From Podospora anserina (lineage: Eukaryota): 64,000 bases of DNA. Of the stretch, positions 10,097 through 22,448 are shown piece by piece; the stretch's first letter is position 1; each line of letters starts with the position of its first letter. The notes beneath the pieces were generated by a model, which did no database searches, was not told where the DNA came from, and saw only the letters and a list, made by a program, of their open reading frames with translations. Location of the stretch: positions 3,534,001 to 3,598,000 of the forward strand of contig CM030334.1 of the NCBI GenBank assembly GCA_017654855.1. Reading direction: 5' to 3'. A program made the position numbers and the translations under genes.

Positions 10097-12557
10097 ATGC
10101 CTTCCTCCAAACTCTTGTCGCTCCTCGCCCTCCTTCCGGCTGCGGCTCTTGCAACCGACAATGCCTCGGTTCAGCCATCTGGGCTAGTCCGTCACTCTCT
10201 GACTGCTCAAGAGGGTGGTTCGCTTTTCAGCAGACACTCGAAGAGACAACTGGTCACTGAATCCTCGGCAAAGCGGGCCGGTACATTCTACACCATCAAC
10301 GTCAAGTTCGGGACGCCTGGCCAAAATGTCCCTGTACAAATCGATACCACGCAACCCGAACTCTTCGCGAACCCTAGATGTTCCACGTCATCGAACCCAT
10401 CCTTCTGCCAGAGCCAGCAGAGGTTCACCATGTCGAGCTCCCTCATCGATCTTGGGGTGCAAGGTTCGATGTCTCTGCGCAATGGTGGCTATGTCAACTG
10501 GCAATACGTGTCCGATTACATCGGTATCGGATGTAAGTTTGTGCATCATGGATGTTGTTTTAAACCGAGTTGGCTGACCTATATCCGTAGCCTCTAGGAT
10601 TACCCAACAGATCTTTGGGGTTGCCTACGACAGTTCCGGACCGACGAACGCCATTCTTGGTCTCGGCCCATCCCTTCAAGGCTGGACCAATGGGTATCCC
10701 CTAGTTCTCGACAGTCTCAAGACACAGGGACACATCAACAGCCGGGCCTGGACTTTGGATTTGAAGGGACTTACAAGCCAGAGCGGTTCGGTGATTTTCG
10801 GTGGCATCGACACCAACAAGTTCATTGGGGACCTGGTTAAACTCCCCATTGTCCCTGCCGCGCAATCTCCTGATGGGTATACCAGATACTGGATCCGCCT
10901 CGATGGTCTCTCGGTCAGACAGGCCGACGGCTCAGTTGTGGATGCCTGGGCTAAGCCGGAGGGTGCAGCGGGTCAGCCATTCGTGATCGACAGCGGCGCG
11001 AGTCTCACTGCCCTTCCCACGTCCATCTACAGCCAGTTTGTTGCGGCGTTCCCTTCGGCCACGGCTAACGCTGACGGGACTTTGGTTGTTGATTGCCCTA
11101 CTGAGGGTGAGGGTGGATCTGTCAACTTCAACTTCGATGGCAAGGACATCAGCGTTCCTTTCGGCGACTTTGTGTCTCGTGTGCCCGACACAGACACCTG
11201 TCTTTTGGGAGTTTATGAGGACAGCTTCCCTGTCCTTGGTACCAACTTCCTCAGGGCTGCCTACGTCGTGTTCGACCAAGACAACCGCAACATCCATCTC
11301 GCTCAGTCCGCAGATTGCGGTGCTGAGGCTCTTGTGGCTATTGGTACGGGTGTCGATGCTGTCCCATCGGTTACCGGCGCCTGCCCAGCTCCAGTGACCT
11401 CGACCACTACCACCGAGTCCGCTACGATCACAGAGGAGGTGACCTCCACCACTACCGAAGAGTCTGCCACCACGACTGAGGAGGCTACTACCACGACTGA
11501 GGAAGCTACTGCCACCACTGAGGAGTCTACCACCATCACAGAGTCCGCCACCATCACTGAATCTGCCACCGAGTCTGCCACCGAGAGTGCTACCGAGGCC
11601 GAAGAGAGCGAGTGCGAGACAGAGTATGAGTCGGCTACTGAGACTGCTACCGAATCGGCCACCGAGACTGCTACCGAGTCGGCCACCGAGACTGTTACTG
11701 AGTCTGCCACCGAGACCGCTACCGAGACCGCTACCGAATCCGTTGCCGAGACCTCAGTTGCTGAGCCCTCCATCACTGCGACCCAGACCTCTGCCGCCGA
11801 GACCTCGGTCGTGGAGACCAGTTCATTCCCCATCACCACCACTGCTGCTCCCCTCCTGACCATCACATACACCGAGACTTCGACCTCGACCATCACCTCA
11901 TGCCCTCCTTCAGTTCCCAAGTGTCCTGTCGGCTCCGTCACCGTTGTTACCCAGGTCATCACAGCTACCACCTCCGTCTGCCCTCAGACCTCGGCCACCT
12001 ACACCTTCCCTGCTGCCAACCCATCCGAGGCGCCTGTCGTCGTCACCCTCACCCCAGTCAAGCCGCTGCCCACTCCCGTCACCGTTCCTGGATGCAGCTG
12101 CACCGCTTCTCCATTCCCTACCGGACTCGCCCCCGGTCAGCCTACAACTTTGGCTACTGTGCCTCACATCGTCGCCACTGGTGTGCCCCAGGCCCCAGGC
12201 GCTGGTGTCCCCAACGTTCCGGGCACTGATGTTCCTCACGTTCCGGGCACTGGTGCTCCCCACGTCCCCGGTTCTGGCGCTCCTCATGTTCCTGGCTCCG
12301 GTGCTCCCCACGTTCCGGGCTCCGGTGCTCCCCATCTTCCCGGCACTGGCCTTCCCCATGTTCCTGGCACTGGCCTCGCCCCTGCCCCTACCCAGCCAGC
12401 CCATGGTGGCCACAATGGTACCAACCCGGTCCCCACCTTTGTTCCTCCTCAGGCTCAGCCCTCTGAGCCCGTGACGGCTGGATCCGCCAAGCTGTCCAGC
12501 GTGATGAACTGGGGCGCGGCGGCTGTAGTCGGTGGTGTCATTGCTGCCATGTTTTAA
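10097..12557 (+). CDS. Secreted, probably GPI-anchored yapsin-like aspartic protease (atypical first catalytic motif), 2 exons
   Basis: Signal peptide, YTINVKFGTPGQ, QIDTT and VIDSG, IFGGIDTNKF, VLGTNFLRAAYVVFD. Intron 10533-10590 joins the two ORFs in frame. T/E/S-rich stalk and hydrophobic C-terminus. Confidence 0.9.
11400..11760 (+). repeat. Coding tandem repeats (TTTEE(S/A) and 12-nt TESA/TETA units)
   Basis: Repeated ACCGAGTCTGCC / ACCGAGACTGCT-like units encoding ATES/ATET. Confidence 0.85.
12205..12376 (+). repeat. Coding 24-nt tandem repeat, about 7 copies of P(H/N)(V/L)PG(S/T)(G/D)x
   Basis: Translation VPNVPGTD-VPHVPGTG-APHVPGSG-APHVPGSG-APHVPGSG-APHLPGTG-LPHVPGTG. Confidence 0.9.
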
Positions 12558-13346
12558 TCGGAGTGTGAAGTTGTTGTGTATACTTCTTTTTGCGGCTGAC
12601 GGTTGTTGGATCCGATTTCTGGTTGATTTTTCGGTTTATGTTCGATGGTGTTTGGTGCTTGGAAGTTAGAGGTAGACAATACAAATAATTTTTATTGGTT
12701 GGTGCTCTGAAAGATTTGTCCCCCACCTTCCCTGTGTTGTATCAATTCTTGAGGGAAGGTACGACCATGTGGTTTGTCTGATTGATTAGATAAGATCTCA
12801 TTGTGGCTATTGACTGATATCACTGACATCGACTGAATCAATACTCCCGGAGCCGCAAGCCAGCATCACTTGGCTGCTGGAGGTAAACAAGGGACGGAAA
12901 TTAACGAAGAACAACATTGACAACGCATGCAGAAACCCTAAGGACGCCATCGAGAACCTTCAGCTGGTGGGGCGACGTGCCAAACTTCCCAAAAGAGACG
13001 TGAAATCTCGGAAACTGTCCTATACTGCAGGGATTCAGATCGCTAGCGGCGAATCTGGCGATCCTTGCCCCCTGCATCTCTCCAGGTTTTCACGCCAACA
13101 CACCAATCATGGATCATCGTGAGAGCCCCGGTTCTGCAGGATCCAGACCGTTCGGTGCCGCTGGCAACCATGTCATCGCATTCTAGGCCAAACTTCAAGC
13201 TCCACGCCGAGGTGGACAAGGTGACAAGCAGATATTACCCATTATCATTTCGTATCGTATTCCTTGACCTCCCTTCCTCACACTTTGCTTTGTGGTCACC
13301 TCACACTCGTTTTCCAGCCTACACTCACTTCAGTCACTCATTCGCC

Positions 13347-14721
13347 ATGAAGCAGGGCCCCATCTTGCTGTCAGGTCTCACCTGGCTCCAAGTCGCAGCA
13401 GCGGCATGCTGTCGCAGCAACAAGTGTCTCAAGGGTGAGCTAGCCAGCAGATATTGGAGAAGTAGACGCTAACCTGTCCGTCTGCGCTGCAGCCGTCGTC
13501 TCCTCGGGTCTTGATGGACTCCAAGATTGCTCTACCAACTTGGCTGTGACCGTCACGCCAGCCCAGAGCACCGTTACCGAGACCGTCACTCAGTTGCCCA
13601 CTGAGCACAACACCTTTGTCCACACGGCCTTCTTCACCGAGACTGTCACCACGACCGCCGAGACTAAAACTGAACTTTTCACCCTTCAGACCACCGTCAC
13701 AGATGCTACTTACACTCAGCTCATCACCAACACTGAGACTGTGGTTGTTACCGAGACAGCCCAACAGACCGTCACGGCAACGAACACCGGTGCTGCCTAT
13801 CCAGTCAAGGCACGAGGCGACACCCTCCTGGCCCCCGAGCCCGAGCCTACTTCTTCATTGTCGGGTTCTGAGCCATCCGCCATCCCAGAGTACGCCTCGG
13901 AACAATGCCCATCTTGGGAGGCCTACGTGAAGGCTTGCAGCTGTGCCGGTGTAGAACCCACAACCGTCACGGCTGAAGCTCCATCCGCGGCCACGGAGAC
14001 AGTGTCATACACAGCGGACCCCATCACCGTCTCTGTGCCAACCACACTGTCTGTCACCGACACCGTCTACGTCTCTTTGACCGAAACCACTGCCGCCACC
14101 GATGTCGAGACAGTCTTTGAAACGGCCACAACCCAAGTCACTCAGACAGTTTCTGCCCACACCACCGTTACAGTCACGCAGACCACAACCACAGTGCTCC
14201 CCGCTGCAACATGCTTACCGCCTTCCCAGGTAAAGGCATTTAGAGGGTTGGCCACTGACTACGGTGGACAGACCCTCGCTATGTATGCTAACATGCTCAA
14301 CGCCTTGTCGGGCGGGATGATTTGGCAACCCCCTTCCACATCCACGTCAACGTCGGTACAATACAAATACTTTTTCAAGCTCGACGACCAAGGACGCGTG
14401 GTTCTGGCCAAGGGAATTCCGCCCTACTCCTACACGTATGCTCTCTATGTAGCAACAAACTCGAATGGGGGTCTTTGGCCACAAGTCAACACAAAGGATG
14501 CCATCCAGAACTCGATCAACGCCGGGGGTTCGGTCGCATTCGTCAAGGGGTGCGTCAACTCTGTGACAGGAGAACTAACTTTGGACGCTGCGGGACGCAA
14601 GAATATTCTCTGGTGCGGACAGCAGATGTGGATGTCTACTGGGAATGGGGAGGAGATCAACCGCGGCACATGTACCGTCATGCATCCCAAGGCCACGGAA
14701 ATCGAGGCTTCCTGGGGATAA
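13347..14721 (+). CDS. Secreted Thr-rich cell-wall protein with small Cys motifs, 2 exons
   Basis: MKQGPILLSGLTWLQVAAA signal; intron 13435-13492; NKCLKA...DCS and IPEYASEQC...YVKACSC motifs separated by T/V-rich tracts; globular C-terminal domain. Confidence 0.85.
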
Positions 14722-14858
14722 GCCTTCGTCTTGCACATTTGAGGAGGGCAGTTGTTTTGCCATGCATTCTCGTGGCTCTCTGATCTCTGGAACTTTGTTT
14801 ACTTTCTCAGGGGTAATCTTGGGAATGTTTATCTGACATAAATATCCATCTTGGTACA

Positions 14859-16871
14859 TCACTGTAGCCATACCCTTTGTCCCCTTGCATTCAGGTCCGC
14901 GAGCGTGACAGGAAACCCGCTAATCGCAAATCGTTTCCCTCTGCCACGTTCATTTTCCTGCTGGTTGATGCTCCTTGCGTCACTCTCGTCGTCGGCCTGG
15001 AATTCAACCACAATGGCCTGCAAAGCTGCCTTGTCTCTGACACGCAACTCAAAGTCAAGCCTGAACTGTTCTATCCCCGTTCCGTCTGGATTGCACTCCC
15101 TCACTCTGACCATATCCCTCGGATTGACGGACCCGCTGGTGATGTCAGTCAGAGTCCTCCATTGTCTGTCCGCCGATGCCAAGCTCTTTTCCTCCTCGGC
15201 TGCTTCCTCAGTCGTCAGCTCTGTGTGATAAAACCTTGTCACCTTCCTCAGCAGCTCGCCCACAGCTGGCGCCTGATGCCTCAACCGACACCGCACCGCT
15301 CCCCGAAGCAACCTCCCATCCGGTCCGCCTGACGCCTGCTGATGAGACAAAGTAGACCTTGGAGAATAAGAGTCTGGTACCTCGAAAAAGAACATGCCCG
15401 CCATCAACACCCTCGCCACATTCTTGATCTTGTCCCTCCCCTGCCCACCAACCCCCGCCCACTCCCCTGTTTCCTTCAACAACCTCGGCACCTCCTCACA
15501 CTGATACAGCTGCACATACTTTGGCTTCAATTCCGGGTTCAGCCTCATCAACCTCCCCCTTTGCGACCGCTCCGCGCCCTCCACCACCCCCTCCCATAAT
15601 CTCTCCGTGTCCAGCTGCCGTTTTATCATTTTTTGCAAGGCAGTAAACCCCCTGAAGTTGCTCGCAAAAGGCATCTTGTCCGATTTTGGGCCTTGTTTCC
15701 CCGTCCCGAGCGACACAAGCGCATCAAGCACCACCCCGTTCCCCTCCCCACTCTCCCGAGACCAAATCTTTGTCTTTTCATCCATCGCCACTCGTGCCGG
15801 ACAGTTGGCGTAAACCGCCCCGTCAATGTACTCCTGCCCCCCCACCCCCCATTCTCTTTTGAACACTGGCAAATAAAACGGCGCGGCCGCGGTGGCCATA
15901 GCCGCCTCCCAGATTTTGAAATCCTTCTCCAAATCATCTTCCCTTTCAAAACCAGATCTGCTGCTACCACCACCAACACTGTCAGTGGCAGAGGTAGTCA
16001 AAGGCCTGTTATAATTCCCAATCACAACCTCCGTATCCCCATCATCCCTCGTGCTCGTCACCGCAACCCTCACCCCCGACCCAAGCGCACCAGAAGCCAG
16101 CACCCTCTCGCTGTTGAACGTTGGCGCAAAAAGGCTCGTCTTGTCCCCAAAATACTGCTCCAACCCCGACCGCAAGGGCCGATCGCTATACACACTCTCC
16201 ACCCTCCTGAAAACCATCGCCCCCCTCGTCAGCGCCCGCCACCCAAGTCGCGAGTTCTCAAACGTCGCGGTGGAGATCTTGCTGAAAAAGGCGATCATGT
16301 CCTGCATCCTGGTATCGATCCCGCTACCCCGCCTCGCCAACGGGGAAGAAGCGACGGCGGCAGGGTCGGAAGGGAGCTTCCCCGGAAAGGTCAGCGCGAG
16401 AGCAACGATCCCTCCTGTGCTGGTCCCCACGATGAGGTCAAACATCTCGGCCAGTCGGACGTTTGTCAGGCCGATTTCTTGCTCGAGCGCCTGGACGAGG
16501 GCGAGCTCGACGATGCCGCGGACGCCGCCGCCGTCGAGGGTGAGGATGCGGACGCCGGAGCAGCGGGGTCTGAGCTGGATGGTTTGGTGCCCGTCCTGGC
16601 CGTCGCAGAGGATGCAAGAGTCTAATTCGAAGGCGGCGGCTTTCCAGCGGGAGGGGGTGGAGAGCTCTTGGATGCAGCGGGGGCAAAAGGCGTGGCCGCA
16701 CGATAAGGCGTGGTCGGGGGAGGAGAGGAGGCAGGAGAGGCAGGTTTTGGTAGAGAGGAGTTGGGTGAAGAGGGGTTTGTTCTGGGGGGTGAGTTCGCGG
16801 CGGAGTTTGAGGATGGAGGTGTCGACTTGTTGGTTGCCGTGATGGTTGAACTCGCGGTCTCGGAGCTGGAG

Positions 16872-16903
<32 letters not shown>

Positions 16904-18908
16904 GGAACTGTCCGGCGGGTTGGGGTTCGTAGCTGTCTTGGTGGGGAGGAAGGGGGGAGCGGTACACTTTGCGGTATAACTCGCAGAACCGAGCTCGTAT
17001 GCGCTGGCGCCAGACGTCTCTGTTCCAGTCGTGACCGGGGACAAAGTCGCCCGGTACCGGCTGGAGGTTGTGTTTGTGGCCGGGACCGGACGGGGGAGGG
17101 ACGTGCTGTTGGTGTTTGCCTCGCTTGCCACCGTGCCCCCGGACTTGACAGCTATATGGAGTCAGAGCGCCTTGTGAGTTCAGAAAGGTGTAAGAGCACT
17201 GCTCATGCAAGAGCTGGTACAAGGCCAGCCCGCCATCCCAGTACTTCCTCAAGTCCTGATCGAATTTGATCTCGGGGGTAAAAGTGGCAGAGTCCCGTCT
17301 CCGAGCGAGGATCAAGAGAGACAAAGCGATGACATTCTCAATCATGCGGTCCATACCAGCAAGCTGGGTGTTGTTCACCCTGTTTTCACGGTCATACGCC
17401 AGCCGCAGAAAGTTGGCAATATGTTCCCTGAGATTGGTGGGTGTGTGATTGTCGCGACAGGTGGCCTTGTAAAAGTCGAGAGGTGTGCTCGACTCGGAAA
17501 AATGTCGAAATGTGTTGGACAGAAAGAGAGAAAGCCCAGCGACGTTGTAGCGGGTCAAGCTCTCCGCTCTGATATCCCGCTCCTCGACAACCGCACGATC
17601 AAGAATACGCTTGAGGTTTCCGAAATGCTCAAGAAGCTTCTCTGGCTTGCCATGGTTGTCGACATGGTTGTTATCAGGGATGTAGCAAAGGTGAATGCTG
17701 CGGAAGAGCTGACGATACAAATCGTTATTACTCCTGATCATCAACCCTAAGCTCGTGGACGCGTTGAAGCGCTCGACAAAAGTGGCAATCACTCCGGTCC
17801 TCTTCCACAGGGCTGGGCTCTGCGACTCCAGAAACTCTTGTTTCAGCATCTCCGGCGTGCTGTCCTTTTTGTCTGGGGTGTACTTGTTGCGAACAACGAT
17901 CAATGTCTTGCCAGACGGTTGGTTGAAAGTCTTGAGCATTGCTCCGGCAGCCCACTCGAGGATCCGAGGAAAGTCGTGTCCTTTGGTTTTGGGATTCTGC
18001 GTGACAAACACAACAACGTCACTGACAGCGTAGAGAAACCGGGCGTAAAACAGGTCAATCCCTGCTTTGCCTCTGCCGTAGTCGTCGGCCTTGATGGTTC
18101 TCGTTTCCACCTGCTCGTCAGGATCTTCTGTGTCCGGGACGGCCTTCTCAGCGTTGGTGAGAGCAAAATCGGCTGTGAACCCTTCACAGTCAGCTAAAAG
18201 TAGGGGGTATTGAGGATCTGGCGACGGCTCTGGTTGAGTGGTGATGTTGTTGCGATAAAGGTGGACTCCAAAGGTAGCGGGATCGTCGCCGCCCTGTGAG
18301 ACTGGCAACTCGTGCTTCTCAGGGCGGTCCAAGACGCTTTGTAACAGGTTGTACAACGCGTTCTCTCGACCCAAAGCGCCCGAGGAGTCTCCTGCTCTCT
18401 GCTCGGCTAGTCCGAGTAGAAGCATTGCCCTAGCGACTGTGGACTTCCCAGCATATGTATTTCCAATGAACGACACGATGCTCGGATAATGGTTCCCCGT
18501 GATCCTGTTTCCAGTTTGGTGAGGGTCGCAAAGACGTCGAAACCGGTCGTACAGCCAGAGTTCCGGCTTGTCATCTTCTTCTTTTCCCTTCTTGACGCTA
18601 AACCAGCGCGCAAGCTTATCGTGGCCGTGGAGTGCCTTGATTTGAGCATCATCAAGGTCGGAACAGGTGATGGCCTTGATGAACATTTCTGCTGTCGGGT
18701 TGGCTGGTTGATGAAGAGCTTTGAGCTTCTCATTTGTGAATTGCTCGATGTGCTCGTTCCAACATGAGTGATGCTCAGAACAGGGAATGTTTCGGCAATC
18801 GTCAATAGTGCAAGAAATACAATAGGAGTCGTTGCATTTGATGCACCGCCGACCTATGGGCTTCCCATGATGGGGGCTGGAGGGCTTTTCGCACAGAAAA
18901 CATTGCAT
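14859..18908 (-). CDS. Multidomain protein: Cys/His ZnF - GBP/atlastin-like P-loop GTPase - RING finger - patatin-like phospholipase
   Basis: Uninterrupted 1349-aa ORF. N-terminal CxxC clusters; Walker A GNTYAGKS, ATFGVHLY, LLADCEG, LYAVSDVVVFV; RING CLSC...CGHAFCPRC...CILC; patatin DGGGVRG, GTSTG, IDGA. Confidence 0.9.
16872..16904 (-). repeat. (CAA)11 microsatellite encoding polyQ
   Basis: Pure TTG x11 on the + strand, between the GTPase region and the RING finger. Confidence 0.95.
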
Positions 18909-19628
18909 TTTGAGTACCTTGCTGATGGGTGGTAATTGTAGTAAGCTGAAATGTTTGGGAATAAATTGGGTTTGTGAATGGTCTTCTTGGATTCAAGACA
19001 AGCGAAGCACACTGATATAACAGTACTAAGATATGACAAGGCCTCAATTTATACTACGGTAGATCATAAGGTACCCCCCCTCTGGAACTGACCTGGTAGC
19101 CAAGATCATCCCGAAGAGGGGTGCATACCTACGACCGTGAAGACGATAAGAGAGAAACATAACCGGCGTGTCGAAGTGGATCTTGATTCGTGGGAACTGT
19201 GGTGATGTACTTACCTTAGGTACTATTGATAGCTGAGCCGCCACTGTGGTTCGCGGTCAACGCAGCCGGACATCGACGCCTTGCGCCAACTTTGGCTTGA
19301 TACGGTTTTGTGGCTTGTTTCCACGGGAGTCATCACGCATTCATGTTCGATTTAGGGGGTTGGAGTGGCGGCCGCTCTGCCAAAATTCCAATTTCCCGAA
19401 AAGAACATGAGTCAGCGATATACAGGGACTAATTACACGAGGGATCTAAAGTCCGTCTCAAAATGATGCTCAGATCGTGGTCGTCTCTCGTGAGTCATTC
19501 AAGAATTTTGATTCAAACAATGACCTCCATTTCTAATTATACATTAAACGCCTTTATCTGCTTAGAATCATCATTCGCCGAACCAATTTCTGCACTCTGC
19601 CCAATCTCCAACTTTCGGCTCACTCCAT

Positions 19629-21692
19629 TCAGTTCCACAGCCTTGGTGATGGGCCACGATCGTTGTCAAGTGTACTGAGGGGAATGCCACCTTCTATCGT
19701 ATCATCTTCCCATGTGTGACGCTCCCGTGCCCGCAGGCGGTCTTGGATTGCCGGATTTCCATCCTTTCCAAACTTGAAGATGTTAGCCTGGCTCCAAGCT
19801 TTAGCAGCCCGTTTCTCTGTCTCATCTGATCGCATCCATTTCACTGCGAACATGATAGATCTGCCGATCATTAGAATTATAATGGTGCCGGAGAAGCTGT
19901 AGCCAAGCCCGGCGAAGGCATCCTTCATTTGATTTCTAGTAACTGTCAGTAGCTGTGTCGTCTCTACGCTGGCCATAAAGCTTACCCGAGACGTTCAGAC
20001 ACCGATGCTGTCGTCAATACGGAGAAGCCGTCCGATTCAACAACCTCTTGACTGCATAGCTGTCAGATACAAGTCTTATCCGGTGTAGGTGACTGATTCT
20101 TCTCCTACCTCGCAAAACACCCAGTCAGAAACATTCCGATGAAACCACTAACGGTGTGTATGAGAAACACTTTGAGCTCGTCATCCGGGAGATATTCAGA
20201 AGTGAGGGGTTTCAACATGTACACGACAGCACTTGAGACAATGCCGAATATGGCCGACGTAGAAGCAGGAACCTGGCATTGTTAGCTTAATACAAGATTG
20301 TCAAAGCCTTAAGATTCGCCACTAACATAACCGCTTCCTGGCGTGATGGCTACAAGCCCAGCGATAGCCCCATCGCAGAAGTGCACGGCAGTGAGCCTCC
20401 TAAACTCGCGCGGCTCATAATCGGCGCTCCTCATGTATATCTGTTTTAGAACCCAGTGAAGGAACACAGTGGTAGTACCGCCAGCGCAAGCTGCCACGTG
20501 CGTGGCCAAGCATGCAGATACGGCTCGGCTGTTTGCCCCAAGTGCTGAACCCCCATTGAAACCGAACCTGTTGAGTGTATCAGATAGGGTCTGACGAGGG
20601 GAAGCTTTGGACTCCGCAAAGAAGAGCTCTGGGGGACAACTACATACCAGCCAAACCAAAGTAACCCGGTCCCAAAGATTGCTTGGTTGACGTCGTATAC
20701 TTCGTAACTCCTTCCTGGAATGATGTCGGCCTGTTTGTACTTTGGGAGCCATGGTGAGGTGTTGAACAACCAGCTTTTGACCCACATGGCCGCTGCCCAT
20801 GGGAGGTTTTCATTGATACGTTTTTTCGTAACACTTGATAGGTGCAAGTAGGCCCTTTGCCACCCATTGGACTCAAAGAAGTAAAAAATAGACATGGCGG
20901 CAACAGCGGCGCCGCTCGCTATGTGCACTGGGGTGCCGCCAGCAAAGTCCATACTGCCCAGTTGGTGAGACCAGCCCTCGCTGTACCAAGACCACCGAGC
21001 AATTGGACTGTAGATTACAGCTGACCATACACTGACGAAAAGTAGGTACCTTGCTGAGTGCATCTTTTGCATTGTGCCTGCGCAGATGAGAGCAGCACTG
21101 GTTTAGGGTTAGCAAGTATCAGGTCATGAACGGGCGATGGCGAGGGCCTACGTAAAAGCTGCAAACATGCCCTGAAAGAGGGCAAAGGCTAGCTCTGGAA
21201 GATGCTGGACGGGTGGCCCTTCACTGGTCGTGACTGATGACCCTTGGTTGGTTGAGTAGACATCGCTCGGCGACATCTGTAGACCATTTGCCGTTGACAG
21301 GCTGCCGAACCAAATGTTTCCAGGAGTAAATGTCAAGGCGTAACCCCATAAGTACCACTGAATGTGTCGAGGTCAGACGCCCTGTGAGGTGGGGAACAAA
21401 TTGGAATTGCCGTACCTGGAAAGATATCATAGCACCAGTGAGCAGGGGCTGTTTGAACAAGGTGATGGCGAACAACCGGCTTCCAAGCCCAGAGTAAACC
21501 ATAGAGATCGATATAACCATAAGAAAAACAAGAGCTGAGCATACCATCAGCCAAGCGATGTCAGCTTTCTGTTTGAGTCGATTCGATATCCTGATCAGCT
21601 TCCAGTCTCAAGGCGGTTTATGCTCTGGCACAGCAACTTACATCAAAAGTGACATCGGCACGCGTCAAGATTGGAGCTGTCATCCTTTCCAT
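19629..21692 (-). CDS. Divergent ammonium transporter (Amt/Mep/Rh family), about 8 exons
   Basis: Spliced by hand: ADIAWLMVCSALVFLM, WYLWGYALTF, FQGMFAAFT, DFAGGTPVH, LLWFGWFGFNGGS, GAIAGLVAITPGSGY, DDELKVFLIH. All introns have GT..AG ends with branch-like CTAAC/CTGAC sites. Confidence 0.9.
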
Positions 21693-22448
21693 GTGAATCA
21701 GGTCGCTGCCCGTCTAGAATGTCAGCGCATATGAACAACAGCAAACGAGGGTAAGAAGAGGGCCGCAATTTAATGGGATTTGGACATGATGACAGTCCGA
21801 GTCAAGCAAACCGGCCAGAGCAAAGATGTCACCCTTCTCAGAAACCCAGTGACGCGGCAGACGAGAGCACAGCCAGCTCGAGCCTTGTGCAAAAGTCTTC
21901 CCAACCCCGGATCGGGACCCGGGGTGTGAAGGCGTCAAAATACGATGCAGCGGGCGGCAAAGCGGTGGCTTGAGGTGTGATAGTTGCGATAAGGGATTGA
22001 TTGGCCAGGAGACGGAGGCTTCATGACAATATTAGCACAGCCGGCAACCAAACCGGTCCAGCTTTGACCAATTTCCGTTTCCACGAGGTGGATGGGTGTC
22101 TCCTTTCAACCGAGTTTAAGGCGACCACTGCTTGCCCGCATTTCCCTCCTTGAAGAGCTCCGGATCAGAACGGGATGAAGAAGGCGGGGGCTGGTGCCGC
22201 TGCCCACACCGAGAAAGGAACCCCCACCAAAACCAAATATGCACGGTATCGGAGGGAGGGGGAGTCCTCTGGACTTTGGTCTGCTCTGGCCCTTCCAAGC
22301 TGTGAGGCACATAGGTACCTACTTAGGTAGTGTGGGTGAACAAAAAGCATCGATTCGACCCCCTGGAATCCTGTAATGACCAACAGATAACACATCATGT
22401 CGCTCTGGCCATTTTCTCGCGATCGTTTTGACAGTGTCATAGATAGAA

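Follow-up and report, generated by a model that had tools for sequence, protein, structure and literature searches.

A Podospora anserina gene product combining a predicted GBP/atlastin-type G domain, a RING finger and a patatin domain is a candidate nucleotide-gated membrane lipase

Animal cell-autonomous immunity and endoplasmic reticulum (ER) membrane fusion both depend centrally on GBP-type GTPases, and patatin lipases execute death in bacterial cyclic oligonucleotide-based antiphage signaling systems (CBASS) and in fungal NOD-like receptors (NLRs). Rab5 activates the patatin effector VipD, and ubiquitin activates ExoU. The titles of PDB entries describe filaments of CapV and CapE bound to cGAMP or cUA and a complex of VipD with Rab5. 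RNF112 is reported to join a RING to an atlastin-like G domain that dimerizes in the transition state (PMC12012479), and death driven by PLP-1 is reported to need an active patatin as well as the nucleotide-binding motif (PMC12881547). Here we describe a gene at positions 14859 to 18908 of a 64,000-nucleotide stretch of Podospora anserina DNA (contig CM030334.1; the whole stretch is called the window) whose single product combines a large G domain, a RING finger and a patatin domain. We read this product as a nucleotide-gated membrane lipase that would attack an intracellular membrane conditionally, and we give this reading about an even chance of being correct.

The gene is a complete, intron-free coding sequence of 1349 codons plus TGA on the minus strand (14859..18908), as are all protein features given below. 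It forms a single uninterrupted open reading frame (ORF) from the ATG at 18906-18908 to the TGA at 14859-14861 and encodes a predicted multidomain protein of 1349 amino acids and ~150 kDa. From the N terminus, the domain order is a B-box/ZZ-like finger, a G domain, a helical middle domain, a Cys/His knuckle, a RING finger, a patatin domain and DUF8392, with the two terminal domains assigned less firmly than the others. The initial annotation had placed Walker A, switch, RING and patatin motifs together in one ORF. The residue positions of all of these motifs were confirmed, and they are far more than chance would provide.

The GB1/RHD3-type large G domain is a predicted fold spanning residues 95 to 480 (17469..18626). 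It carries the P-loop GNTYAGKS (residues 149 to 156; 18441-18464), a switch I TFGVHLY (18255-18275; TFGVH at residues 212 to 216, with T212 as the switch Thr), a DCEG motif of the DxEG (G3) type (residues 240 to 243; 18180-18191) and VVRNKY at the G4 position (17880-17897), whose Asn is N341. The helical middle domain (residues 481 to 650; 16959..17468) follows directly and holds a Cys/His knuckle (C571, C587, H599 and H602; 17103-17198), in which C571, H599 and H602 are invariant in the aligned homologs.

We modeled residues 1 to 700 with AlphaFold2 from an alignment of 36 homologs (predicted local distance difference test [pLDDT] score, 78.5; predicted template modeling [pTM] score, 0.68). 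The best Foldseek matches for the G domain were atlastin-1, GBP1/2/5, RNF112, Sey1p and SMG9 (E from 5e-7). In VIA comparisons, atlastin-1 (4idn_B) scored Z 22.2 with 359 residues aligned from model residue 95 to ~648, followed by the hGBP1 LG domain (2b8w_A; Z 21.4, root mean square deviation [rmsd] 3.5 Å, 259 aligned), Sey1p (Z 20.1), SMG9 (Z 19.9) and RNF112 (Z 19.8, with the truncated RNF112T, 355 aligned, ~95-648); the first other GTPases, MFN2 and Ski7, appeared at Z 11.2. A structure search independent of Foldseek gave ranks 1 to 10 of 48,161 representative chains entirely to the GBP/atlastin clade (Z 15.7 to 19.9), with EngB at rank 11 (Z 11.2). Language-model features pointed to the GBP, RHD3 and SMG9 clusters and serve as leads only. 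By predicted fold, residues 95 to 650 belong to the GBP/atlastin/Sey1/RNF112/SMG9 clade, and the helices that follow the G domain are taken as the middle domain because the atlastin-1 and RNF112 alignments run to ~648, across the middle domains of those proteins. The P-loop domain had been called GBP-like from its motifs, and the Foldseek and structure searches agree, with Z 19 to 22 for the clade against at most 11.2 for other GTPases.

Several observations weigh against this reading of the protein as a GTP-driven switch of GBP descent, the first being that sequence methods miss the relationship. Neither Pfam GBP (PF02263) nor RHD3_GTPase (PF05879) matched the full protein at E<=1, and residues 95 to 480 searched alone gave no Pfam match at E<=10. 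The same two models were found in 0/21 and 0/24 homologs at E<=0.01, GBP and atlastin were absent among the 45 PDB sequence matches of a profile of 24 orthologs (E<=10), and phmmer against the PDB returned no GBP or atlastin either. Membership of the clade therefore rests on predicted structure.

The nucleotide site itself supplies the other two points. An alignment of 36 sequences shows no variation at D240, C241, E242, G243, P202, V203, V215, L217 or Y218, while conservation of G154, K155, S156 and T211 is at least 90%. We also aligned 144 family G domains, which were chosen for the presence of the P-loop and D-x-E-G, making the invariance of these two motifs circular here; it appears independently in the separate homolog alignments. 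At the G4 position, which is the last residue of strand beta-5 and lies where an R-D motif is found in GBPs, atlastins and Sey1, the 144 domains have Asn (134), His (9) or Gln (1) and never Asp, with an Arg directly before this position in only 49/144. N341 would be the counterpart of GBP1 Asp184, an assignment made from strand order in the model. The P-loop arginine-finger position holds G (92), S (25), N (11), C (6), T (3) or Y (2) in 139/144 domains; Arg is not among these six commonest residues, and the window protein has Tyr152. In RNF112, mutating the P-loop arginine (Xenopus R195) is reported to make GTP turnover negligible, and the human and mouse proteins, in which this Arg is absent, are described as weak GTPases (PMC12012479).

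Because the Lys, Ser, Thr and DxEG residues are conserved, nucleotide binding by the G domain is very likely as judged from its motifs. With the G4 Asp replaced and the arginine finger missing, neither specificity for GTP nor rapid turnover can be taken for granted, and the domain may hydrolyze slowly or prefer a nucleotide other than GTP; the conserved G4 Asn could mean that the switch reads such a nucleotide. The term "GTP-switched," used in the initial annotation, is not secure, given the G4 Asn and the absent arginine finger. A homodimer prediction of two copies of residues 95 to 480 with GTP and Mg, in which the alignment was unused and no controls were included, scored 0.00 and says nothing either way.

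The same site could belong to a G domain that does not switch. Like SMG9, it would then act as a scaffold, with a nucleotide (perhaps one other than GTP) bound permanently or with none bound, and control of the lipase would lie elsewhere, for example with the zinc fingers, DUF8392 or ubiquitin. SMG9 is structurally as close to the model as the active GTPases are (Z 19.9), the change of the G4 Asp to Asn is family-wide and the arginine finger is missing, as it is in the weakly active human and mouse RNF112. However, deep paralogous clades keep the P-loop Lys/Ser, the switch I Thr and DxEG with little or no change, although drift would be expected of a dead site, and the conservation of Asn341 in 134/144 domains suggests a selected contact with the base. 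We consider a nonswitching scaffold improbable and retain the nucleotide-gated lipase as the preferred reading.

The lipase half of the protein is recognized at the sequence level. The patatin-like phospholipase domain (residues 784 to 1165; 15414..16559) is the only Pfam match in the whole protein (Patatin, PF01734; 87.2 bits versus a cutoff of 27.7; E 2.2e-24). It contains the oxyanion motif GGGVRG (residues 793 to 798; 16515-16532), the nucleophile motif GTSTG (residues 828 to 832; 16413-16427) with Ser830 and the catalytic Asp in IDGAV (15813-15827; DGA at residues 1029 to 1031) as Asp1029. The GGGxRG, GTSTG and DG elements are invariant in 24 to 40 aligned sequences and align with the CapV motifs. 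We modeled residues 690 to 1349 separately (pLDDT 84.3; pTM 0.91), and the RING-patatin-DUF8392 half is predicted to fold as one compact body. Residues 784 to 1174 of this model matched apo CapV (9jeh_A) at Z 30.4 (rmsd 3.1, 312 aligned), and the patatin domain also matched potato patatin (1oxw; Z 29.7), iPLA2-beta (6aun; Z 29.3), CapE (Z 27.7), VipD (Z 16.6) and ExoU (Z 11.8). By identity, iPLA2-beta is the nearest solved patatin (28%). A patatin with intact GGGxRG, GxSxG and DGA motifs had been proposed at the outset, and the Pfam score and the leading structural matches (Z 29 to 30) uphold it. The domain is catalytically intact by its motifs, and its activity is predicted.

The C terminus (residues 1166 to 1349; 14862..15413) is a predicted beta-sandwich domain that is probably DUF8392 (PF28431). 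It contains a nearly invariant ISGFP motif (14910-14924), and its structural matches, searched within the 660-residue model, were weak ones to beta-sandwiches at about Z 5; no new fold is claimed for it. PF28431, named DUF8392 by Atlas, is precomputed on the 98%-identical Podospora pseudocomata ortholog (P0002) and on 28/38 homologs. We placed DUF8392 at the C terminus because homologs truncated C-terminally are without it. Kyte-Doolittle means over 19 residues stay at or below 1.6 throughout the protein and peak inside domain cores, so we read the protein from its sequence as soluble.

The RING finger (residues 723 to 768; 16605..16742) has the C3HC4 spacing C-x2-C-x10-C-x-H-x2-C-x2-C-x19-C-x2-C of a canonical cross-brace. 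Its ligands (C723, C726, C737, H739, C742, C745, C765 and C768) are invariant or at least 90% conserved, and the family profile matches the RINGs of TRIM21, TRIM5 and RNF8 at E 5e-4 to 1.3e-3. Six Pfam RING models all fell below their cutoffs, the best being zf-RING_5 (E 3.2e-4; 21.1 bits versus 27.9). The exact spacing and conserved ligands nevertheless show that the C3HC4 RING of the initial annotation is real. Its description as ubiquitin-coupled draws on the RING fold and spacing, and E3 activity is putative. RNF112 autoubiquitination is reported to be independent of the GTPase cycle (PMC12012479), so coupling between RING and GTPase cannot be assumed, a further point against the preferred reading.

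The N-terminal Cys/His-rich finger (residues 1 to 56; 18741..18908) has a conserved pattern of C3, C6, C22, C25, C30, C33, C38, C43, H46/47, C49 and H53. The finger of the window protein has no Pfam match of its own, and paralog fingers gave subthreshold matches to zf-B_box (2/21), ANCHR-like BBOX (3/21) and CEBP_ZZ (2/21), making the domain weakly B-box/ZZ-like by sequence. We rejected membership of the TRIM family since the domain order differs. A poly-Q tract of 11 Q (16872..16904) lies in a low-confidence, poorly conserved linker. In P. pseudocomata, this tract is two residues shorter and has one Q changed to L.

The mechanism that we infer for a nucleotide-gated lipase would begin with nucleotide binding to the G domain, which would drive G-G dimerization or higher assembly. 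The helical domain would then swing on nucleotide binding, as seen experimentally in atlastin, GBP1 and RNF112, and this movement would unmask the compact RING-patatin-DUF8392 module or bring copies of it together on a target membrane. The Ser830/Asp1029 dyad of the patatin domain would then hydrolyze phospholipids, and the RING would add autoubiquitination or substrate ubiquitination that limits or marks the assembly. The role served by such an enzyme might be cell-autonomous defense, regulated death or organelle clearance, rather than bulk lipid metabolism.

We searched the G domain alone against 1.84 billion representatives and obtained 270 matches at E<=1e-3. Patatin (E<=1e-4) was present in 33/36 long homologs found through the G domain, in which no other enzymatic effector domain was detected, and in 13/16 further G-domain homologs. 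Coupling of the G domain to patatin is family-wide. Searching with a profile built from 21 distant members yielded 248 proteins at E<=1e-20; among the 120 matches listed, ~93 carry organism names, and all of these are from Pezizomycotina genera. Ascobolus immersus has at least five paralogs among the matches listed, and several other genomes have two. Two A. immersus paralogs (P0091, tag 417003; P0163, tag 417000) have nearly adjacent locus tags and lie on contigs of equal length (238,226 bases), apparently the same one, which suggests near-tandem duplication. No second Podospora paralog appeared among the 38 and 120 homolog rows listed, which is weak evidence.

Paralogs differ in what follows the lipase half and in the state of the lipase. 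C-terminal additions include Ank plus SPRY in P0283 (Chaetomium), SH3 in P0204 (Cladosporium) and long Ank arrays after the patatin/DUF8392 module in Fusarium (P0037-P0039). These added domains, with the RING and the B-box-like finger, resemble the components of TRIM proteins but are arranged differently. The nucleophile Ser is lost in at least seven representatives, which read GTGTGG (P0097, P0102, P0115, P0116, P0135 and P0136) or GTNTGG (P0107) and keep the G domain and the GGGxRG loop. Such paralogs are probably dead lipases, to judge from the motif, and could act as regulators or decoys. The family looks accessory, expanding and lineage restricted. Within the orthologous clade, median identity is highest in the patatin (47%) and RING (45%) domains and lowest in the poly-Q linker (19%).

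Transcription of the gene was followed in assembled RNA contigs from four public runs, in which depth cannot rank expression, and we make no claim about expression level. The approximate transcript is 14784..19138 (minus strand). Its 5' end is set by the limit of an RNA contig at 19138, and its 3' end at 14784 by a loose run of 12 T before the run X2 contig, corresponding to poly(A) on the minus strand. Run X1 gave contigs over the gene at 15852-16858 and 16913-19138 and another at 13253-15441, and run X2 gave one over the 3' part at 14784-15417. Uncovered stretches (parts of 15442-15851, and 16859-16912 at the poly-Q repeat, which was skipped as a repeat) carry no meaning. None of the contigs showed a splice joint inside the gene as far as it was covered. 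The same four runs, which come from four studies, skip seven CT..AC introns in the neighboring ammonium transporter gene and one GT..AG intron in the other neighbor, and the runs therefore hold spliced RNA. The gene is real, transcribed and intron free where covered.

The biological role is where the alternatives separate most. The orthologs of the gene are P. anserina Pa_3_10000, identified by synteny, and P. pseudocomata QC762_310000 (P0002). The P. pseudocomata protein differs from the window protein at 23/1349 residues, with the differences spread evenly, no variable domain and the lowest rates in the patatin (0.5 per 100) and G (1.3 per 100) domains. The order of the locus is conserved across Sordariales. 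In the published expression table for confrontation with Serratia, Pa_3_10000 has empty cells in all four confrontation columns and in a fifth, unnamed column; neighbors have values in the same table, and Pa_3_9980 and Pa_3_9990 are strongly down (log-ratios of about -2 to -5). The same study counts nine non-NLR patatin genes, of which five go up with bacteria, and Pa_3_10000 appears not to be one of those five. The low divergence, conserved order and empty expression cells weigh against a role in defense. At the level of this ortholog, the gene resembles in part a low-diversity housekeeping gene, syntenic and with few substitutions, and the wider family is rich in paralogs.

This pattern would suit a housekeeping remodeler of membrane lipids, a nucleotide-gated lipase for routine turnover or shaping of organelle membranes with no part in defense or death. 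The ER, lipid droplets, peroxisomes, mitochondria and septal pores would be candidate sites, by comparison with Sey1/atlastin and iPLA2-type enzymes. Besides conservation in sequence and position and the absence of an entry as differentially expressed with bacteria, such a role would fit transcription in all four RNA runs, the identity to iPLA2-beta and the homeostatic work of atlastin and Sey1. It fits less well with a family seen only in Pezizomycotina among the named matches, with a copy number that varies and with members that carry sensor-like additions or dead lipases, a pattern unlike that of core organelle GTPases, and with a protein that has no membrane anchor. We treat routine lipid remodeling as possible but rate it well short of an even chance.

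A role of the nucleotide-gated lipase in immunity or cell death is plausible as a hypothesis, and we rate it about as likely as routine lipid remodeling. The points in its favor come from the family, which is lineage restricted and copy variable, with sensor-like additions, dead-enzyme paralogs and a patatin effector also found in PLP-1 and HET-Z. Constitutive expression and conservation are compatible with a sensor-executor protein. In its fullest form, which we regard as a speculative option on the unlikely side, the family would give fungi a branch of cell-autonomous immunity that works without NLRs, a single-chain counterpart of animal GBP/TRIM proteins and CBASS lipases. Detection of a membrane that is foreign or damaged, or of a danger signal, would fall to the zinc fingers, DUF8392 or the Ank, SPRY or SH3 domains of paralogs. 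Assembly of the GBP-like domain there would be followed by destruction of the membrane or death of the cell through the patatin, and the RING would ubiquitinate the target. Dead-lipase paralogs would serve as regulators or decoys.

A different kind of death function, a polymorphic het-like allorecognition determinant whose allelic differences trigger incompatibility as PLP-1/SEC-9 or het-z do, is very improbable. Its attraction is that the NLRs PLP-1 and HET-Z are reported to kill through their patatin domains (PMC12881547; 10.1101/2025.09.29.679196). The window protein has no NB-ARC, NACHT or repeat domain, however, is 98% identical between species with evenly spread differences and comes from a fungus whose full set of nine het loci is described as characterized (10.1101/2025.09.29.679196).

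Within the window, the genes run in the order aspartyl protease, Thr-rich ORF, lipase gene and ammonium transporter, in synteny with Pa_3_9980, Pa_3_9990 and Pa_3_10010. The aspartyl protease Pa_3_9980 lies at 10578-12557 on the plus strand. The Thr/Ser-rich ORF Pa_3_9990 (13444-14721, plus strand), which is without a Pfam match, is the convergent neighbor and has one 58-base GT..AG intron at 13434-13491. Its RNA contigs end at about 14855-14870, so the two convergent transcripts appear to overlap at their 3' ends by ~70 to 90 bases, and the X1 contig 13253-15441 extends over both. On the other side, the ammonium transporter Pa_3_10010 (19495-22160, minus strand) has seven short introns, which are supported by RNA contigs from three or four of the runs. 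In other Sordariales, the ammonium transporter is fused to the lipase gene in the gene models P0006, P0009 and P0051; these fusions look like an annotation artifact and show conserved adjacency.

Full-text searches, which did not cover subscription journals, found nothing on this architecture, Pa_3_10000 or PF28431, in keeping with the earlier statement that no functional study of it was known, and the words GBP, guanylate and dynamin are absent from a pair of recent reviews on fungal immunity and cell death. Database names for the proteins are "hypothetical," "PNPLA domain-containing," "FabD/lysophospholipase-like" and "RING-type domain-containing," and none mentions a GBP-type G domain. The GBP link of the family is unrecognized in databases because the labels are limited to PNPLA- or lysophospholipase-like terms and the G domain escapes Pfam. 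A GBP-patatin-RING fusion would be a compact system for nucleotide-driven switching of a membrane-destroying enzyme, and since P. anserina is genetically tractable, the hypothesis is directly testable. The natural change of the G4 Asp to Asn also makes the family interesting for the study of nucleotide specificity among dynamin superfamily members.

Compared with known systems, the family is a new branch of the GBP/atlastin clade, by predicted fold, with a lipase effector fused in cis, and its nearest architectural relative is RNF112 (ZNF179/neurolastin). RNF112 likewise has a C3HC4 RING, a GB1/RHD3-type G domain and a short helical middle domain in one chain, it matches the window protein at Z 19.8 with ~12% identity, and some RNF112 orthologs are also without the P-loop arginine finger. 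It differs in that its RING is N-terminal and it has no lipase, and it is an animal brain protein, whereas the RING of the window protein follows the middle domain and packs on the patatin in the model. With GBP1/2/5, atlastin-1/3 and Sey1p/RHD3, the window protein shares the large G fold (Z 19 to 22; rmsd 3.4 to 3.9 over 250 to 280 residues), the P-loop, a T-x-G-[VI] switch I and a D-x-E-G switch II, and in each of them the G domain is followed by a helical domain. Unlike those proteins, its family has [LR]-N rather than R-D at G4, has no arginine finger and goes undetected by the Pfam GBP and RHD3 models, and the window protein carries its effector in cis and is without a CaaX box or transmembrane anchor.

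On the lipase side, CapV/CapE and iPLA2-beta (PNPLA9) are the best structural matches and have the same Ser/Asp dyad and oxyanion loop. The ligand-bound filaments in which CapV and CapE were solved set a precedent for switching on an enzyme through assembly. CapV, a bacterial enzyme of one domain, responds to a cyclic dinucleotide that another protein makes, iPLA2-beta uses N-terminal ankyrin repeats and neither has a G domain or RING. Closer in lineage, N. crassa PLP-1 and P. anserina HET-Z/PaPLP1 also pair a nucleoside triphosphate (NTP)-binding module with a patatin effector in Pezizomycotina. In contrast to these patatin NLRs, the NTPase of the window protein is a TRAFAC GBP-like GTPase by predicted fold, its patatin is C-terminal and it has no repeats. 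No Pfam match to NACHT, NB-ARC or TPR/WD40/Ank repeats was found in the window protein, as first noted from its sequence, and 2/24 orthologs gave P-loop-level matches to nSTAND6 or AAA_16 (E ~0.003). VipD and ExoU are secreted bacterial effectors with the same patatin fold (Z 16.6 and 11.8), and their GTPase and ubiquitin partners are separate host proteins that act in trans. The window protein has a G domain and a RING, the counterparts of those partners, built into one chain with the lipase.

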